From a virus, in IMG/VR virus record IMGVR_UViG_3300031555_005249: 64,000 nt of DNA; one strand, written 5' to 3'. The translations under genes and the position numbers were made by a program. Shown here one piece after another: positions 1-62,140 of the stretch (the first letter of the stretch is position 1; the number at the start of each line of letters is the position of its first letter). A model generated the notes under the pieces. The model was given only the letters and a program-made list of their open reading frames with translations. It searched no databases and was not told the origin of the DNA.

Positions 1-1
1 A

Positions 2-688
2 TTATTCAAATAGTATTGTATGGATTATAATGTAGATTCAAGAATTGTTAAAGATCAGCTCACAGAAGAACAAGCTTTTAAATATGAAGCAGAGTTAACT
101 TATTACTACAAAGAAAAAGGTGAATGTCATTGTAGTTTAGCTAAACCTGGAACTGGAGGCTACTCTTTTGTATGGACAGAGGATATGAAACAATATTGGT
201 CTAAATATAACCCAATGAAAGCTCAAGAATAGAGAGAAAGAATGTCTAAGAATAATCCTATGAAAAATCCAGAATTTGCAAAAAAAGCTGGAGATAAACA
301 TAAGCGACCTATTATAATAAACAAAACCCGATATGATGGTCTAGTTGATGCAGCAAGAGCATATGGAGTAGCAGAGACAACTGTCGTAGGATGGTGTAAA
401 AAAGGAGGCAATCCTCAAGGAGAATTATGTTATTATGAGGATGAAGGACCCAAACCATTCACTCCTAGTTTAAGTACAAAAGTTCCTATTATTGTAAATG
501 GAATATGGTATGAGAGCAAAGGAGCCGCAGCGAAAGCTATTGGTGCGCCAAATGGTTCTTGTTTCAATAGCGCGTTAAAAAATGGGATTTTATATAAAGG
601 ACAATATAAATGTGAATATGCTAATCAGCAGCCGAGCCAAGGGAATTCCAATAACAGTACCTTGGAAGGTTCAACGACTAACGAGTGA
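2..688 (+). CDS. Homing-endonuclease-like protein, 5' end lies outside the window; carries NUMOD3-type motifs (NPMKNPE); read through in-frame TAG at 11-13 and 230-232
   Basis: ORFs 20-232 and 242-688 are in the same frame, separated only by a TAG. Sequence shows repeated NPMK/NPxG NUMOD3-like motifs, typical of the C-terminal DNA-binding part of GIY-YIG or HNH homing endonucleases. Confidence 0.45.
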
Positions 689-918
689 GGATGGATACCA
701 ATAATCTCGACACGAGTACCGAACTCCTATTTAGATAGGATGAAGATATAGTCTGATCTTATAGGAAACTATAAGAAATACAAGATAAAGAGCTTGTATG
801 ATAACATAATGGTGACACTCGCGCCGCAATTGCTGATGTAAAAACTCAAGGCGTTATAAATACTAACGCTCTTGCTTCACAATTAGCTGCTTGCTGCTGC
901 GACATTGAGAAGGCTAAC

Positions 919-1239
919 ATGGAAAATCGTTTTGCCGCTCAAACTTATAACTGCAATACGCTTCAAGCTATTGACAAACTTGGTGATAGAATCATCGATT
1001 TCATGACGCAAGATAAGATCGCTTCTCTTACTGCAGAGAATCAGTCTCTTAAATTCGCGGCATCACAAGCAAATCAAAATGCATTTATCACTGCAAATCA
1101 AGAAGCTCAGACTGCAGAACTTATTCGCAGACTTTCGACTCCATGTCCCGTTCCTGCGTATGTAGTTCCTAACCCCAACTGCTGCTACGATTATCAAGTA
1201 ACTCGTAACTGCGGTTGCGGTAATTGCGTAAGCTTCTAA
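919..1239 (+). CDS. Small protein with a helical N-terminus and a Cys-rich C-terminus (7 Cys in last 35 aa: PCPVP...NCCYDYQVTRNCGCGNC)
   Basis: ORF track; first gene of a short plus-strand operon opposite to the rest of the window; composition only. Confidence 0.4.
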   Translation: MENRFAAQTYNCNTLQAIDKLGDRIIDFMTQDKIASLTAENQSLKFAASQANQNAFITANQEAQTAELIRRLSTPCPVPAYVVPNPNCCYDYQVTRNCGCGNCVSF

Positions 1240-1267
1240 TTAATTTTAAACGGAGGCTTAGATAAGA

Positions 1268-1687
1268 ATGGAAATTACAGCAAATGCTCTGCAGACGGTA
1301 GAGCTTAATCAAAATGTTCAGTTTACCGACACTGCGGTTTGCGGCAGCTGCTCCATTATGCATCGTGATGGTAGTGGTTTAGTAACTCTTCGTGGTCTTA
1401 CTAACCAATGTCGTGCGAGATTTAAGGCGTTCTTCAGCGGGAATATAGCCATTCCCGCTGACGGAACTGTTGAAGCGATCTCTCTTGCGATTGCTATTAA
1501 CGGAGAGGCTGTGGCTACAACCACAATGATCCAAACTCCAGCGGCAGTAGAAGAATTCGCTAATGTAGCTAGCGCAGTATATATTGACGTTCCTGCTAAT
1601 TGCTGCATCACAGTTAGCGTAAGAAATACTAGTACGCAAGCTATTGATGTTCAAAATGCAAACTTAATTATAGAAAGGGTGGCGTAA
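1268..1687 (+). CDS. Beta-rich 139-aa protein, weak resemblance to exosporium/TNF-like (BxpB/DUF3992-type) proteins
   Basis: ORF track; RBS GGAGG upstream; similarity judged from memory of motif spacing only. Confidence 0.35.
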   Translation: MEITANALQTVELNQNVQFTDTAVCGSCSIMHRDGSGLVTLRGLTNQCRARFKAFFSGNIAIPADGTVEAISLAIAINGEAVATTTMIQTPAAVEEFANVASAVYIDVPANCCITVSVRNTSTQAIDVQNANLIIERVA

Positions 1688-1688
1688 T

Positions 1689-2408
1689 ATGGAAAAATTA
1701 AAATAGATGAAAGAGGCGCTCGTCGGTTGTGTTCAAGGCCAGGTCTATGGCAACATGGAGAAGGTCGACGCTCAAGAGCTTGGCGCCGCCATTGATATGA
1801 TTAAGGATCTTAGTGAAGCTATCTATTATTGTACAATTACTGAGGCTATGGAGGAAGAAGGCGAAGATAAAGAAGGTAAAGGCAAGCACGGAATGATGTA
1901 TTATTCTCGTACAACTCCTATGTATCATATGCCTTATCCTGTTGAGATGTATGACCCTCGCAATAGAGAAAGATATTATTCACCAATGTATGCGCAAAGT
2001 GGCGAAAATAGTGGTGGCTATTCTAGCTCGTCTAATGGCAATAGTTCGAACTCCTCAGGTGGTAATGATGCGCGCGGAGGCGGCACTCGTGGCTACCATG
2101 AGGGAATGATTCCAGGTGAACATTATCCAATGTATAACGATGGTATGTATTCAATGTACGAACGCGGCGGTAATCGAGGATATATGGAAGCTATGAGTCG
2201 TGACCCTAAAGAAGGAAGAAGCGGCGAACGCCGCAAGATGTATATGGACGGTAAAGGTATGAAAGATAAAGCTCATCAAATGAAAGAGCTTGAATCTTAT
2301 ATGCAAGAACTTTCCAGTGATCTCACAGAGATGATTCAAGACGCATCTCCTGAAGAAAAACAACTTCTACAACAAAAGATAAGCATGCTCGCTACTAAAA
2401 TTAAATAA
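1689..2408 (+). CDS. Low-complexity Met/Tyr/Gly/Ser-rich protein (MYxxY repeats), with in-frame TAG at 1704-1706
   Basis: ATG at 1689 preceded by AAAGGGTGG RBS; the frame continues through TAG into the listed ORF 1707-2408. Confidence 0.4.
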
Positions 2409-60473: not shown

Positions 60474-60999
60474 TGCAACTTTTCATTACTTCAAGCGCTG
60501 CTTTATGTTTCTCTGGTGTAAGTCCGGCGCAACAGCTTGCATCTACGCGGATTTGGGTATTTGGATACATGCTACGTAATATCAATGCGTTAGAGATTAC
60601 GCATATATCCGTACAAACGCCACAAAGTTCAATTACATCTGCGCAACAAAATCGATCCGCCCAATTATCCCACATTGTATATCCATAAGTGGATTTATGT
60701 GCAGTATAAAATACGAAAGAATAAAGCTCAGGAATAATATCTTCACCTTCAGTCCCTTCCATACAATGGGGCGGCACATATTTACTTTCAAGACAAACGG
60801 CGTACACTTCTTCGTCATAGTGTTTATCAATAGTAAAAATAACTATATCTCCATTCTGGCGCGCTTCAATTACTTTATCGCGCACATTATAGATAATATC
60901 GCGCGCTTCAGGTGTTCCAAGGGCGCCATACACAAAATCATTCTGCATATCGATTATAATTAAAACTTTATTCATTATTTGTATCCTCCCACTTAACAA
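60445..60999 (-). CDS. Isochorismatase-family cysteine hydrolase (nicotinamidase PncA-like)
   Basis: LIIIDMQNDF, K, and catalytic Cys in CGVCTDICV. Confidence 0.7.
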   Translation of the reverse strand: MLSGRIQIMNKVLIIIDMQNDFVYGALGTPEARDIIYNVRDKVIEARQNGDIVIFTIDKHYDEEVYAVCLESKYVPPHCMEGTEGEDIIPELYSFVFYTAHKSTYGYTMWDNWADRFCCADVIELCGVCTDICVISNALILRSMYPNTQIRVDASCCAGLTPEKHKAALEVMKSCNVEVINDES

Positions 61000-61255
61000 T
61001 TATCATTTTACTGCCGAGCGTAAGAGTTTTATATCCCAACTTCTCTAAATAAGAGCCAACCGCTTCTGCCTCAGAGGGACCATCTACATTTATACGAGTT
61101 TGAAAATATCCTTCAGTTGCAGCTGCCCAGATATGTTTCATAAGATTTTTCTTATATTTTTTACCTAGAGTCATTGGTTTCTTGGTAAAAAGATTTGCTT
61201 CTTTTGCAGTGATATCTTTCATTACTCCATCTCCTCCACTATAAGTCATTTCCAT
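60968..61255 (-). CDS. Hypothetical protein
   Basis: ORF track. Confidence 0.35.
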   Translation of the reverse strand: MEMTYSGGDGVMKDITAKEANLFTKKPMTLGKKYKKNLMKHIWAAATEGYFQTRINVDGPSEAEAVGSYLEKLGYKTLTLGSKMIIVKWEDTNNE

Positions 61256-61323
61256 TTTTCTTTTCCTCTCTTTTTTCCCTTTTTTATTTTATAATTTATT
61301 ATATCATAAATTTTTAAAAAAAT

Positions 61324-61349
61324 AAAAGCAGATTATATGATCTGCTTTT
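61324..61349 (-). terminator. Hairpin terminator (aaaagcag-attatatgat-ctgctttt)
   Basis: Seen in sequence. Confidence 0.5.
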
Positions 61350-61750
61350 ATTCTACTTCGTGTTTATAATTAAGTGTTTTGAATTGGCGGCGATCGATGC
61401 ATTTAAGCTTCTCGCTTTCATTGATATTTTCTAGCAACAACTCACAATTAGCGCCAGTTGCACTAAGATTACGTATAGACTCCATCATTTCTGATAAAGA
61501 AACACCGTATGATTTTGCTGCTGTTGCTATTTTCTGCAGAGCATTGCTCATACTACTCTGTGCTGTTTGTAATTGTTCTTCTTTAGTACCCATTCTCACT
61601 TCTAACTCCTTCCATTGATGTACACCATCTCCTATTTTTACTGTGACGATTCCTTGATCAGAATCAATTGCGCAACCCACTTCGCCTTTCATTAATATTG
61701 GATTATTTTCATTCCAAGCCTATGGAGTATCATTTTTCATAATAAGGCGC
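61348..61750 (-). CDS. Second tail-fibre N-terminal-domain protein, 1 in-frame TAG
   Basis: MATYNLSTRLIMKNDTP-Q-AWNENNPILMKGEVGCAIDSDQGIVTVKIGDGVHQWKEL matches the tail-fibre N-terminal pattern P.WN..NP.L..GE.G...D.G..K.GDG...W..L. Confidence 0.5.
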
Positions 61751-61759
61751 GTACTTAGA

Positions 61760-62140
61760 TTATAAGTTGCCATTTTCTATCTCCTTTGCTATCTCAATAT
61801 AAGTTCCTTTTACACCTTGACTTTTGACCTGCGCAATACCAAATTTTTCCATTTTTTGCAATAGTGAAGTCCATACAGGGCGCGAAAGGCTTGTTTTTTG
61901 AATCATCTTTACAATTGAGATATTACCAGATAAACCAATTGTTTCTCTAATTGATTGAAAAGCCAATTTTTCATTATCTGTTAATGATTTGTAAAAATCT
62001 TCTACTAAAATTAGCTGATCAGCGCCAATGACCGCTTCTAAGAAATCCATTAGGCGCCCAAGATCTCCATCAAGTCTAAATTCACGAATATCTGCTTCAT
62101 ATTCTTTAGCTATTGCTAATAATTTATCATAAGTAATCAT
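61760..62140 (-). CDS. Hypothetical protein
   Basis: ORF track; consensus promoter at about 62165-62200. Confidence 0.35.
   Translation of the reverse strand: MITYDKLLAIAKEYEADIREFRLDGDLGRLMDFLEAVIGADQLILVEDFYKSLTDNEKLAFQSIRETIGLSGNISIVKMIQKTSLSRPVWTSLLQKMEKFGIAQVKSQGVKGTYIEIAKEIENGNL

Follow-up and report, generated by a model that had tools for sequence, protein, structure and literature searches.

Several genes in a 64,000-nucleotide stretch of viral DNA (IMG/VR record IMGVR_UViG_3300031555_005249; the whole stretch is called the window below) are interrupted by in-frame TAG codons, which raises the question of whether TAG is still a stop codon in this phage and, if it is translated, which amino acid it specifies and by what means. 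The window corresponds to positions 68,666-132,665 of a 135,217-bp contig of an uncultivated tailed phage (gut/rumen), and its match to the JGI 3300029305 contig Ga0307249_10002766 (135,217 bp) extends over 12,241 bases at 100% identity. Besides JGI 3300029305, the samples that contain this phage include ENA ERZ27248370 and ERZ27248314 as well as SRR7032251. From the analyses described here we conclude that TAG is very probably a sense codon for glutamine in this phage, read by a phage-encoded tRNA with the anticodon CUA and used unevenly across the genes.

In-frame TAG codons and the colinearity of the interrupted genes

When open reading frames (ORFs) were delimited by TAA and TGA only, the window yielded 72 plausible genes comprising 19,048 codons. 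These genes contain 43 in-frame TAG codons, about 35 of which lie downstream of a likely start, in 20 genes. The original prediction, made from the letters of the window, held that in-frame TAG occurs genome-wide, that at least 20 genes are intact only if TAG is translated, and that ORFs called with the standard code break up the true gene set; the counts agree with it, about 20 genes being interrupted by TAG only. With ORFs defined by reading through TAG, 48 genes end in TAA, 24 in TGA and none of the 72 in TAG.

The specificity of the effect was examined with 206 loci of related phages (designated by L and a number) collected around the genes encoding DnaE, LigA and a protein like the major vault protein (MVP). 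A stop codon of the window was considered bridged when a stop-free tblastn alignment from a relative extended at least 15 residues, with at least 4 identities, on each side of it; codons inside a longer ORF of another frame were left out, given that the unfiltered version of the test was confounded by antisense and off-frame alignments in conserved genes. Twenty-two TAG codons were bridged, 18 of them in at least two loci, as against two TGA codons (none in at least two loci) and six TAA codons (one in at least two loci). The single recurrent TAA bridging is due to an insertion that splits the gene at 32638-35118. No homologue alignment from the relatives' loci ends at a TAG. Re-calling the genes with TAG read through, the check proposed originally, did not discriminate when the fraction of the sequence covered by long ORFs was used as the measure (0.705 with the standard code, 0.774 with TAG read through and 0.761 with TGA read through), because genes free of TAG dominate the window and read-through creates spurious ORFs; in contrast, the bridging test was specific for TAG.

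Colinearity across TAG was followed in the genes encoding NrdD, RecJ, a RuvC-like resolvase and a Sak4-like ATPase, with these features:

5736-8873, minus strand: NrdD, anaerobic ribonucleotide reductase (Pfam NRDD), with TAG at 7215-7217 and 6198-6200
7296-8432, minus strand: in-frame NrdD intein of 379 residues with LAGLIDADG motifs (C-Y-K-G-E-E-L ... L-S-H-N, then C-F-A-Y-D)
20551-22344, minus strand: RecJ-like exonuclease with a TTG start (Pfam DHH, RecJ_OB), with TAG as codon 18 (22291-22293)
2745-3254, minus strand: RuvC-like Holliday junction resolvase (PHROG 159/827), with four TAGs (3177, 3096, 2889, 2880)
29238-29804, minus strand: exon 1 of the Sak4-like AAA_24 ATPase (Pfam AAA_24, 9.7e-35), with TAG as codons 10 and 13 (29775, 29766)
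28265-28620, minus strand: group I intron of the Sak4-like gene (Rfam RF00028, 78 bits)
28556-29251, minus strand: LAGLIDADG ORF in the Sak4 intron, without TAG
27779-28273, minus strand: exon 2 of the Sak4-like gene

NrdD had been described as split into three pieces by TAG. The Pfam NRDD domain spans both TAGs as a single stretch (residues 539-1056), and the protein without its intein aligns with NrdD of Thermotoga maritima (4u3e) over residues 21-662 (E = 2e-145). The gene is therefore colinear with a single protein across both TAGs, and it carries in addition the in-frame intein, whose removal restores the colinearity. The four TAGs of the RuvC-like gene, also noted originally, are all bridged by 24 relatives. 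In the Sak4-like gene codons 10 and 13 are bridged by 43 and 57 alignments, so that this gene does belong to those that need TAG translated, although it is also split by a group I intron.

The possibility that the TAGs are sequencing or assembly errors, for which we found no point in favour, is negligible. The same TAG position recurs in independent metagenome assemblies of relatives (four relatives for RecJ, four for the GIY-YIG gene at 8800-9480 and five for Sak4), and near-identical contigs from other samples match at 99.96-100% over 3-12 kb; because of this recurrence, both in diverged relatives and in near-identical contigs, the TAGs are not artefacts. Moreover, about 93 TAGs and no other type of stop are found across the window and its left flank. 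It is also very improbable that TAG is still a stop and that the genes containing it are pseudogenes or selfish elements in decay. Homing endonucleases, which often decay, do account for many of these genes, but NrdD, RecJ, RuvC, Sak4 and the entire tail module of the left flank are affected as well. The interruptions are caused by TAG only, never by TGA, TAA or a frameshift, conservation goes on past every TAG, no gene terminates in TAG, and a cognate suppressor tRNA is present. That TAG is translated as a sense codon in this phage is thus strongly supported by the sequence comparisons, given the colinear homologues, the restriction of the effect to TAG, the tRNA(CUA) in the window and the lack of TAG-terminated genes.

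The remaining TAG-bearing genes encode homing endonucleases, tail proteins and a few other products:

8800-9480, minus strand: GIY-YIG homing endonuclease (Pfam GIY-YIG, NUMOD), with TAG at the YIG-X position (9409-9411) and at 9310-9312
14531-15400, minus strand: GIY-YIG homing endonuclease (Pfam), with four TAGs (14813, 14801, 14795, 14720) bridged by 8-17 alignments
22354-23106, minus strand: GIY-YIG homing endonuclease (Pfam), with TAGs at 23050 and 23014 and an ordinary Gln codon in its own YIGQ
33022-33969, minus strand: GIY-YIG homing endonuclease (Pfam) within a 1.27-kb insertion, with TAG at the YIG-X position (33874-33876) and at 33166-33168
34135-35118, minus strand: 5' part of a split gene (transmembrane segment, coiled coil and start of a GIY-YIG domain), with four TAGs; joined to the 3' part in relatives
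32638-32862, minus strand: 3' part of the split gene, a 75-codon ORF, contiguous and in frame with the 5' part in relatives
52279-52905, minus strand: HNH homing endonuclease (Pfam HNH_3), with TAG at 52702-52704 bridged by nine relatives (Trp in seven, Phe in two)
16468-17439, minus strand: HNH-type homing endonuclease-like protein (PHROG 374/559/9084), with TAG as codon 18 (17386-17388), weakly bridged (two alignments)
54192-57029, minus strand: BspA-type leucine-rich repeat (LRR) tail fibre (Pfam LRR_5), with TAGs at 55653-55655 and 54876-54878
35170-35421, minus strand: small winged-helix-like protein (PHROG 142), with TAG as codon 25 (35347-35349) bridged by 70 relatives (Ala 44, Gln 11, Lys 8)
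57026-57346, minus strand: tail-fibre-N-terminus-like protein (PHROG 6049), with TAG as codon 10 (57317-57319), bridged by no relative
61348-61773, minus strand: tail-fibre/assembly N-terminus-like protein (PHROG 19976), with TAG as codon 18 (61720-61722), bridged by two alignments

The protein with a transmembrane segment and a coiled coil had been taken for a whole TAG-bearing gene; its four TAGs stand, but it is only the 5' part of a gene split by an insertion of 1.27 kb (approximately 32863-34137) that bears a free-standing GIY-YIG endonuclease. When both parts are fused the protein gives a complete GIY-YIG match. Rfam detected no intron RNA in the insertion region (32.5-34.3 kb). The two TAGs of the LRR fibre lie at corresponding positions of two copies of an internal repeat (about 260 residues), whose similarity persists on either side of the codon, and therefore the TAG was duplicated together with the repeat. 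Between the HNH endonuclease and the LRR fibre, at 53008-54198 (minus strand), there is a protein of 366 residues whose match to the Hint module is weak and does not reach the Pfam cut-off; it belongs to no PHROG family and has no homologue among the relatives' loci. Finally, the N-terminal TAGs of the dUTPase gene (4056), the polynucleotide kinase gene (47402) and a plus-strand gene (1704) may lie upstream of the true start; the last of these had been listed among the genes that depend on TAG, and its TAG is in frame.

The amino acid specified by TAG and the suppressor tRNA

Glutamine is the best-supported meaning of TAG, and the comparison with homologues makes this a strong inference. The best-conserved TAG column, codon 18 of RecJ, holds Gln in 56 of 65 relatives, within the motif (E/Q)-Q-V-L-x-N-R-G-I; codon 10 of Sak4 is Gln in 37 of 89 relatives (Glu in 19, Lys in 17), and codon 892 of NrdD is Gln in T. 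maritima. At the YIG-X position Gln is present in 25 of 40 relatives for the endonuclease at 8800-9480 and in 9 of 20 for that at 33022-33969. It had been claimed that TAG falls in both genes on the invariant Gln of the YIGQ motif; the location is right, but the residue is not invariant, given that I-TevI has Ser there (a marginal PDB match) and one paralogue in the window has Glu. When the likelihood of each amino acid was computed over the 25 usable TAG columns of the window, Gln scored +2.1 bits, followed by Lys (-15.9), Thr (-50.1), Glu (-51.3) and the others, so that Gln is ahead of Lys by 18 bits and of Glu by more than 50. An independent set of columns was obtained from a tail gene of the left flank that encodes 736 residues and contains 20 TAGs, using 119 distant homologues in 70 clusters that came from a protein-database search, since a search of the relatives' loci with this protein gave no match. 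Gln was again first (-1.6, as against Glu -4.8, Thr -7.5 and Lys -9.2), being the commonest residue at columns 436, 673 and 110. In addition, relatives that carry a suppressor tRNA of the window type (L214, L283) place TAG at conserved Gln columns.

Several observations weigh against this assignment. Most TAGs stand at variable positions and the absolute support for Gln is small, with Lys as the runner-up in the window. Some columns are mainly aromatic: codon 26 of RuvC (Tyr in 16 of 22), codon 68 of the HNH gene (Trp in 7 of 9), codon 892 of NrdD (Tyr 12, Gln 11) and residue 397 of the flank gene (Tyr in 37 of 60). These may reflect the fact that a single mutation separates TAG from TAY and from TGG, or they may have their source in a second suppressor encoded elsewhere in the genome, of which about 80 of 135 kb (the window and the flanks obtained) were seen. 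It is accordingly conceivable, yet unlikely, that TAG specifies another amino acid (Lys, Glu, Tyr or Trp) or is ambiguous through more than one suppressor. The second place of Lys, the columns that are mostly Lys (codon 13 of Sak4, Lys 62 and Gln 27; codon 53 of RuvC, Lys 14), the aromatic columns, the sister phages that appear to use TAG as Glu and the relatives with two different CUA tRNAs all speak for such a meaning. The first TAG of NrdD stands where T. maritima has Lys (the second stands at its Gln) and where relatives have Gln (5) or Lys (4). Nevertheless, Gln leads by the margins given above in the window and is first again in the independent set, the best-conserved TAG columns are Gln, a single CUA tRNA was found in the approximately 80 kb, the aromatic columns can be explained by mutational distance, and the acceptor stem of that tRNA matches tRNA-Gln.

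The suppressor tRNA and the elements around it are as follows:

43615-43689, minus strand: suppressor tRNA with the anticodon CUA (ARAGORN; Rfam tRNA, 58.9 bits)
43800-43828, minus strand: promoter-like sequence TTGACA-17-TATAAT with 12 of 12 consensus matches (consensus scan), about 110 nucleotides upstream of the tRNA
43579-43607, minus strand: 12-bp hairpin (AAGCTCCTTTGA / TCAAAGGAGCTT), read from the sequence, a few bases past the CCA of the tRNA

In its minimum-energy fold the suppressor forms an ordinary cloverleaf: the D stem has 3 bp, the anticodon stem has 5 bp and the loop CUCUAAA, and the variable loop has 4 nucleotides; U1 and U72 are unpaired, position 73 is G and the CCA is encoded. 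The terminator scan did not call the hairpin, whose T-run is weak, but it looks like the end of a transcription unit, and the suppressor looks like a separate unit. Rfam gave no match in the 110-nucleotide leader and no ribozyme beside the tRNA.

A whole-sequence analysis of tRNA identity gave no isotype for the suppressor; the comparison of acceptor stems was informative instead. A phage tRNA-Gln(UUG) is encoded on the same contig, about 0.8 kb outside the window on its right side. The acceptor stems are UGGGGUG/CACCCCA with G73 in this tRNA and UGGGGAG/CUCCCCU with G73 in the suppressor; both have U1, the pairs G2-G5:C68-C71 and G73, and within the first five pairs only position 72 differs. 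In Escherichia coli the identity set of glutaminyl-tRNA synthetase (GlnRS) includes a weak or open 1-72 pair, G2-C71, G3-C70, G10, U35 and G73. The body of the suppressor thus appears Gln-like by the match of its acceptor stem to tRNA-Gln, and not to tRNA-Glu, tRNA-Lys or tRNA-Tyr. Taken with the two likelihood rankings and the RecJ column, this supports the earlier suggestion that TAG is probably Gln. ARAGORN labels the tRNA 'Pyl', but the label follows the anticodon alone. A tRNA-Pyl has a short D-loop, a 3-nucleotide variable loop and a 6-bp anticodon stem and goes with pylS/pylBCD; pyrrolysine was rejected in view of the ordinary cloverleaf with its 5-bp anticodon stem and 4-nucleotide variable loop, and there are no Pyl genes among the proteins annotated in the window.

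In the mechanism that we propose, the phage would transcribe its own tRNA(CUA) separately, from a consensus sigma-70 promoter and with the hairpin after the CCA, and host enzymes would charge it in such a way that glutamine is delivered, either through GlnRS or through glutamyl-tRNA synthetase (GluRS) followed by the amidotransferase GatCAB. Either route would fit, because the acceptor stem copies that of tRNA-Gln(UUG) apart from the opened 1-72 pair.

Distribution of TAG among the genes

The window (36% G+C, with most genes on the minus strand) contains, according to Pfam and PHROG searches, the replication and accessory region of the phage. It encodes a DnaE-type polymerase, an SF1 helicase, a DnaB-like helicase, a primase, RecJ, an NAD-dependent ligase, GyrA, GyrB, RNase H, the RuvC-like resolvase and the Sak4-like ATPase; the nucleotide-metabolism proteins dUTPase, NrdD and NrdD activase; and a sigma-70 factor, a protein with the MVP-shoulder domain, the LRR tail fibre and many homing endonucleases. 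Three features that bear on the distribution of TAG are these:

10553-14530, minus strand: DnaE-type polymerase (Pfam), 1324 codons without TAG, the largest TAG-free core gene
35749-52278, minus strand: stretch of 16.5 kb without a securely internal TAG
57552-60038, minus strand: MVP-shoulder-domain protein (Pfam MVP_shoulder), 826 codons without TAG

The uneven use of TAG is statistically real. Nine core genes (DnaE, LigA, GyrA, GyrB, two helicases, the primase, the sigma factor and the MVP-like protein; 5,895 codons) contain no TAG and 211 CAA/CAG codons (Fisher P = 2e-6 against the rest), seven homing endonuclease genes contain 13 TAG and 72 CAA/CAG (P = 1e-4) and are the most enriched class within the window, and all other genes of the window contain 22 TAG and 349 CAA/CAG. 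This count of TAG per gene had been proposed in the original prediction, together with the claim that the long core replication genes are free of TAG; the claim holds for the nine genes listed, but not for RecJ, a replication/repair gene that has TAG at codon 18. The suppressor itself lies inside the 16.5-kb stretch (35.7-52.3 kb), along with the genes for LigA, a papain-like peptidase, GyrA, GyrB, RNase H, a phosphoesterase, a virion protein, an RNA-ligase-like protein and sigma-70. The sole TAG of this stretch is codon 3 of the polynucleotide kinase gene, which may precede the true start.

The contrast between replication and late genes becomes much stronger than in the window alone when the left flank, read from contigs that are 99.96-100% identical to the window, is included, because the tail module located there is dense in TAG. 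This module (a Peptidase_S74 fibre, an XepA-like protein and the 736-residue protein) has 58 TAGs in 4,091 codons, which amounts to 36% of its Gln-equivalent codons, and has no in-frame TGA or TAA. Within the sparsely recoded genes, counted over the 19 TAG-bearing genes of the window, the TAGs are clustered near the 5' end: 16 of 34 fall in the first 15% of the gene as against 27 of 188 CAA/CAG codons of the same genes (binomial P = 1e-5), and the clustering is kept (12 of 28, P = 4e-4) for the TAGs bridged by at least three alignments. Some of the 5'-clustered TAGs may precede the true start codon.

Two classes of codon usage can be distinguished: CAG and GAG are frequent in the core and virion genes that lack TAG, and the TAG-bearing genes use almost only CAA, as illustrated by the gene at 34135-35118 (22 CAA, no CAG and four TAG). 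The usage of the MVP-like gene is unusual (30 CAG and 3 CAA), compared with 28 CAG and 30 CAA in DnaE. These classes suggest a tie to expression level. Opposite the MVP-like gene there are antisense ORFs of 331 and 515 codons broken by TAG only, and the MVP-like protein has matches in the phage collection only in 'huge phage' genomes of 462-735 kb, at about 44% identity.

The unevenness had been read as a means of gating the expression of a subset of genes. The unevenness stands, and gating is consistent with it and with published patterns. TAG is missing from the large genes for replication and transcription, as it is from the 16.5-kb block with the suppressor and the sigma factor; sparse and mostly 5' in accessory, repair and nucleotide-metabolism genes; frequent in homing endonucleases; and dense in the tail module, so that the full-length synthesis of homing endonucleases and tail proteins would depend on the suppressor, and TAG could time or limit it. 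Three observations weigh against a simple timing gate: the virion genes encoding the MVP-like protein and the product of 47814-48617 have no TAG; the suppressor has a consensus sigma-70 promoter and is therefore likely to be expressed early, leaving less time for such a gate; and the two classes of codon usage suggest a link to expression level.

The distribution can be read equally well as avoidance of TAG in genes that are essential or highly expressed. It is quite conceivable, if somewhat short of an even chance, that TAG is translated but its distribution results from mutation and selection and not from timing, competition with release factor 1 purging TAG from essential or highly expressed genes. 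TAG would then be tolerated in genes of low expression and in selfish genes, with homing endonucleases bringing their codon usage from other TAG-recoded phages. The two TAG-free virion proteins, which are presumably late and abundant, would be expected on this account, as would the enrichment of TAG in homing endonucleases above all other classes inside the window; the division into CAG-rich TAG-free genes and CAA-only TAG-bearing genes points to codon classes linked to expression, and the host-type consensus promoter of the suppressor fits as well. In contrast, TAG reaches its highest density, by a wide margin, in the tail module, as in the late-gene patterns published, and the 5' clustering is not predicted by pure tolerance unless N-termini are simply less constrained.

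Under either account of the distribution, the translation of TAG as glutamine has practical consequences. Gene calls made with the standard code are wrong here, since about 20 genes of the window and almost all of the neighbouring tail module are broken into pieces when TAG is not translated as Gln, and annotation, host-range and protein-family work on this phage group needs the right translation table. The phage would also be a well-resolved case in which the replication genes, the sigma factor and the suppressor can be read by a naive host, and the tail genes and homing endonucleases are suppressor-dependent.

Related phages and known systems

Many relatives of this phage are present in IMG/VR, with 60-88% identity in DnaE and contigs of about 117-165 kb. 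Among cultured phages, the SPbeta-like Bacillus phages have the closest DnaE homologues (about 40% identity), and a nucleotide search of a phage collection with 20 kb of the window (megablast) gave no matching record. Relatives have been binned with metagenome-assembled genomes of Bacilli, Clostridia and Erysipelotrichaceae; the binning of phage contigs is too unreliable and these labels were not used to assign a host.

At conserved columns, the in-frame stops of the relatives fall into three patterns: TGA at Trp in 25, TAG at Gln in 17 and TAG at Glu in 34. In nearly every locus the TAG columns are either Gln or Glu and not both. The exceptions are L013, on the same contig as L147 (three Gln, one Glu), and L076 (three Glu, two Gln), which are sister to one of the TAG-at-Glu clades and whose mixed columns may stem from noise, from a recent change of code or from ambiguous decoding. 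The TAG-at-Glu loci include L022, L034-L039, L045, L052, L064, L066, L067, L069, L071, L087-L092, L097, L109, L112, L114 and L305, and this list is not exhaustive. In a neighbour-joining tree of DnaE they form two clades, the TGA loci form another with standard-code loci in between, and the window pairs with L001, in which TAG is at Gln. A sister clade with TGA at Trp (L005, L016, L023, L040, L041, L047, L074, L078 and others) has six such columns in DnaE, and therefore the replication genes of those phages are not free of the recoded stop. From these alignments one group of phages, related at 60-70% DnaE identity, appears to hold four codes: the standard one and three others, in which TGA means Trp, TAG means Gln or TAG means Glu.

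The catalytic acidic motif of the RuvC-like protein, V-M-E-E-V in the window, is V-I-M-TAG-TAG-V in L052, I-V-L-E-TAG-V in L064 and I-V-M-TAG-D-V in L069; Gln at a catalytic Glu of RuvC would not be expected to work. The suppressors agree with this pattern. The tRNA region of L207 (IMG/VR 3300037400_003528) contains a tRNA(CUA) at 4917-4993, a tRNA-Glu(UUC) at 10152-10227 and a tRNA-Glu(CUC), and no tRNA-Gln in the 14.8 kb examined. Its suppressor and its tRNA-Glu(UUC) have in common G1.U72, G2-C71, C3-G70, U4.G69, C5-G68 and A73. IMG/VR contig 3300021399_000006 would be a further TAG-to-Glu relative. The type of suppressor tracks the code: a homologue of the L207 type occurs in L305, with four TAG-at-Glu columns, and the window type occurs with TAG at Gln (L214, L283). 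A second CUA tRNA of 91-97 nucleotides is found in some relatives (L199, at 20489-20585; L214, L245, L283, L290 and L292), alone or beside an ordinary suppressor, and the loop of its extra arm, C-U-C-U-G-A-A, resembles the anticodon loop of tRNA-Gln (CUG).

We therefore lean, with no great confidence, towards a lineage that has captured the amber codon with two meanings, Gln in this phage and a few relatives and Glu in two other DnaE clades. U1-A72 is a known determinant of GatCAB. As a speculation, in hosts that lack GlnRS the GluRS could glutamylate both types of suppressor and the first base pair could decide the amidation to Gln by GatCAB, in which case a few changes in the acceptor stem would switch the meaning of the codon. 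No report of TAG/UAG as Glu in phages was found in the literature searched, the coverage of which was incomplete, and for phages with a code unlike that of the host Borges et al. reported two changes only, TAG to Gln and TGA to Trp (bioRxiv 10.1101/2021.08.26.457843). If two meanings were indeed captured, the change of code in phages would be more plastic than a picture of only Gln and Trp allows, these phages would offer a natural system for asking how the meaning of a codon switches, and in the TAG-to-Glu phages a pipeline set to code 15 would wrongly put Gln in place of Glu.

Phages that use code 15, in which TAG is read as Gln, were reportedly described by Ivanova et al. in 2014. The pattern of TAG distribution found here is already published for recoded phages, and this phage adds another case. 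Borges et al. described that recoded phages keep their replication genes in the standard code and that structural and lysis genes are recoded; in their Agate clade, an early gene contains a recoded intron endonuclease, codes 4, 11 and 15 are mixed, and the genomes, of about 127-154 kb, come from the guts of cattle and other animals (bioRxiv 10.1101/2021.08.26.457843). The phage analyzed here resembles the code-15 phages of that study in its in-frame TAGs with a phage tRNA(CUA), its standard-code replication genes, its heavily recoded structural genes and the preferential recoding of its homing endonucleases. Among the clades of Borges et al., Agate is the closest fit, considering the contig of 135 kb, the relatives of 117-165 kb and the mixed codes on the DnaE tree. 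Agate was defined on a tree of the large terminase, and the likeness here comes from genome size, source and code mix, no terminase gene being present in the window or in the flanks obtained. Unlike the phages of Borges et al., the relatives of this phage also show the TAG-to-Glu pattern, and no release factor 2 gene was found in the approximately 80 kb examined.

In crAss-like phages the reading of TAG as Gln has been validated by metaproteomics (PMC9523058). The reassignment and the anticodon of the suppressor are the same in both, but the lineages are unrelated: the hosts of crAss-like phages are Bacteroidota and the DnaE of the phage described here is nearest to SPbeta-like Bacillus phages. 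phAss-1, for which the name 'Phassvirus' has been proposed, comes from the gut, measures about 136 kb and has TAG in 28% of its ORFs, together with tRNA-Sup(CTA) genes; Gln was inferred as the meaning of TAG, no dedicated synthetase was described, and Clostridia were suggested as hosts (PMC10607447). It resembles our phage in size and in the use of TAG; the nucleotide search gave no match to any phage record in the collection.

Outside phages, supE of E. coli is an amber suppressor tRNA-Gln with the anticodon CUA. The suppressor of the window is like supE in having an apparently tRNA-Gln-like body and acceptor stem with the anticodon CUA, U35 and G73 being retained; unlike supE, it is borne by a phage, which needs it for dozens of codons, and its bases 1 and 72 are unpaired. 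In the Peritrich and Blastocrithidia nuclear codes (NCBI tables 30 and 31), TAG specifies Glu and TAA is also reassigned. The sister phages would be similar to them in the use of TAG as glutamate, and would differ in that TAG alone is reassigned, through a phage tRNA and not in a eukaryotic nuclear code.

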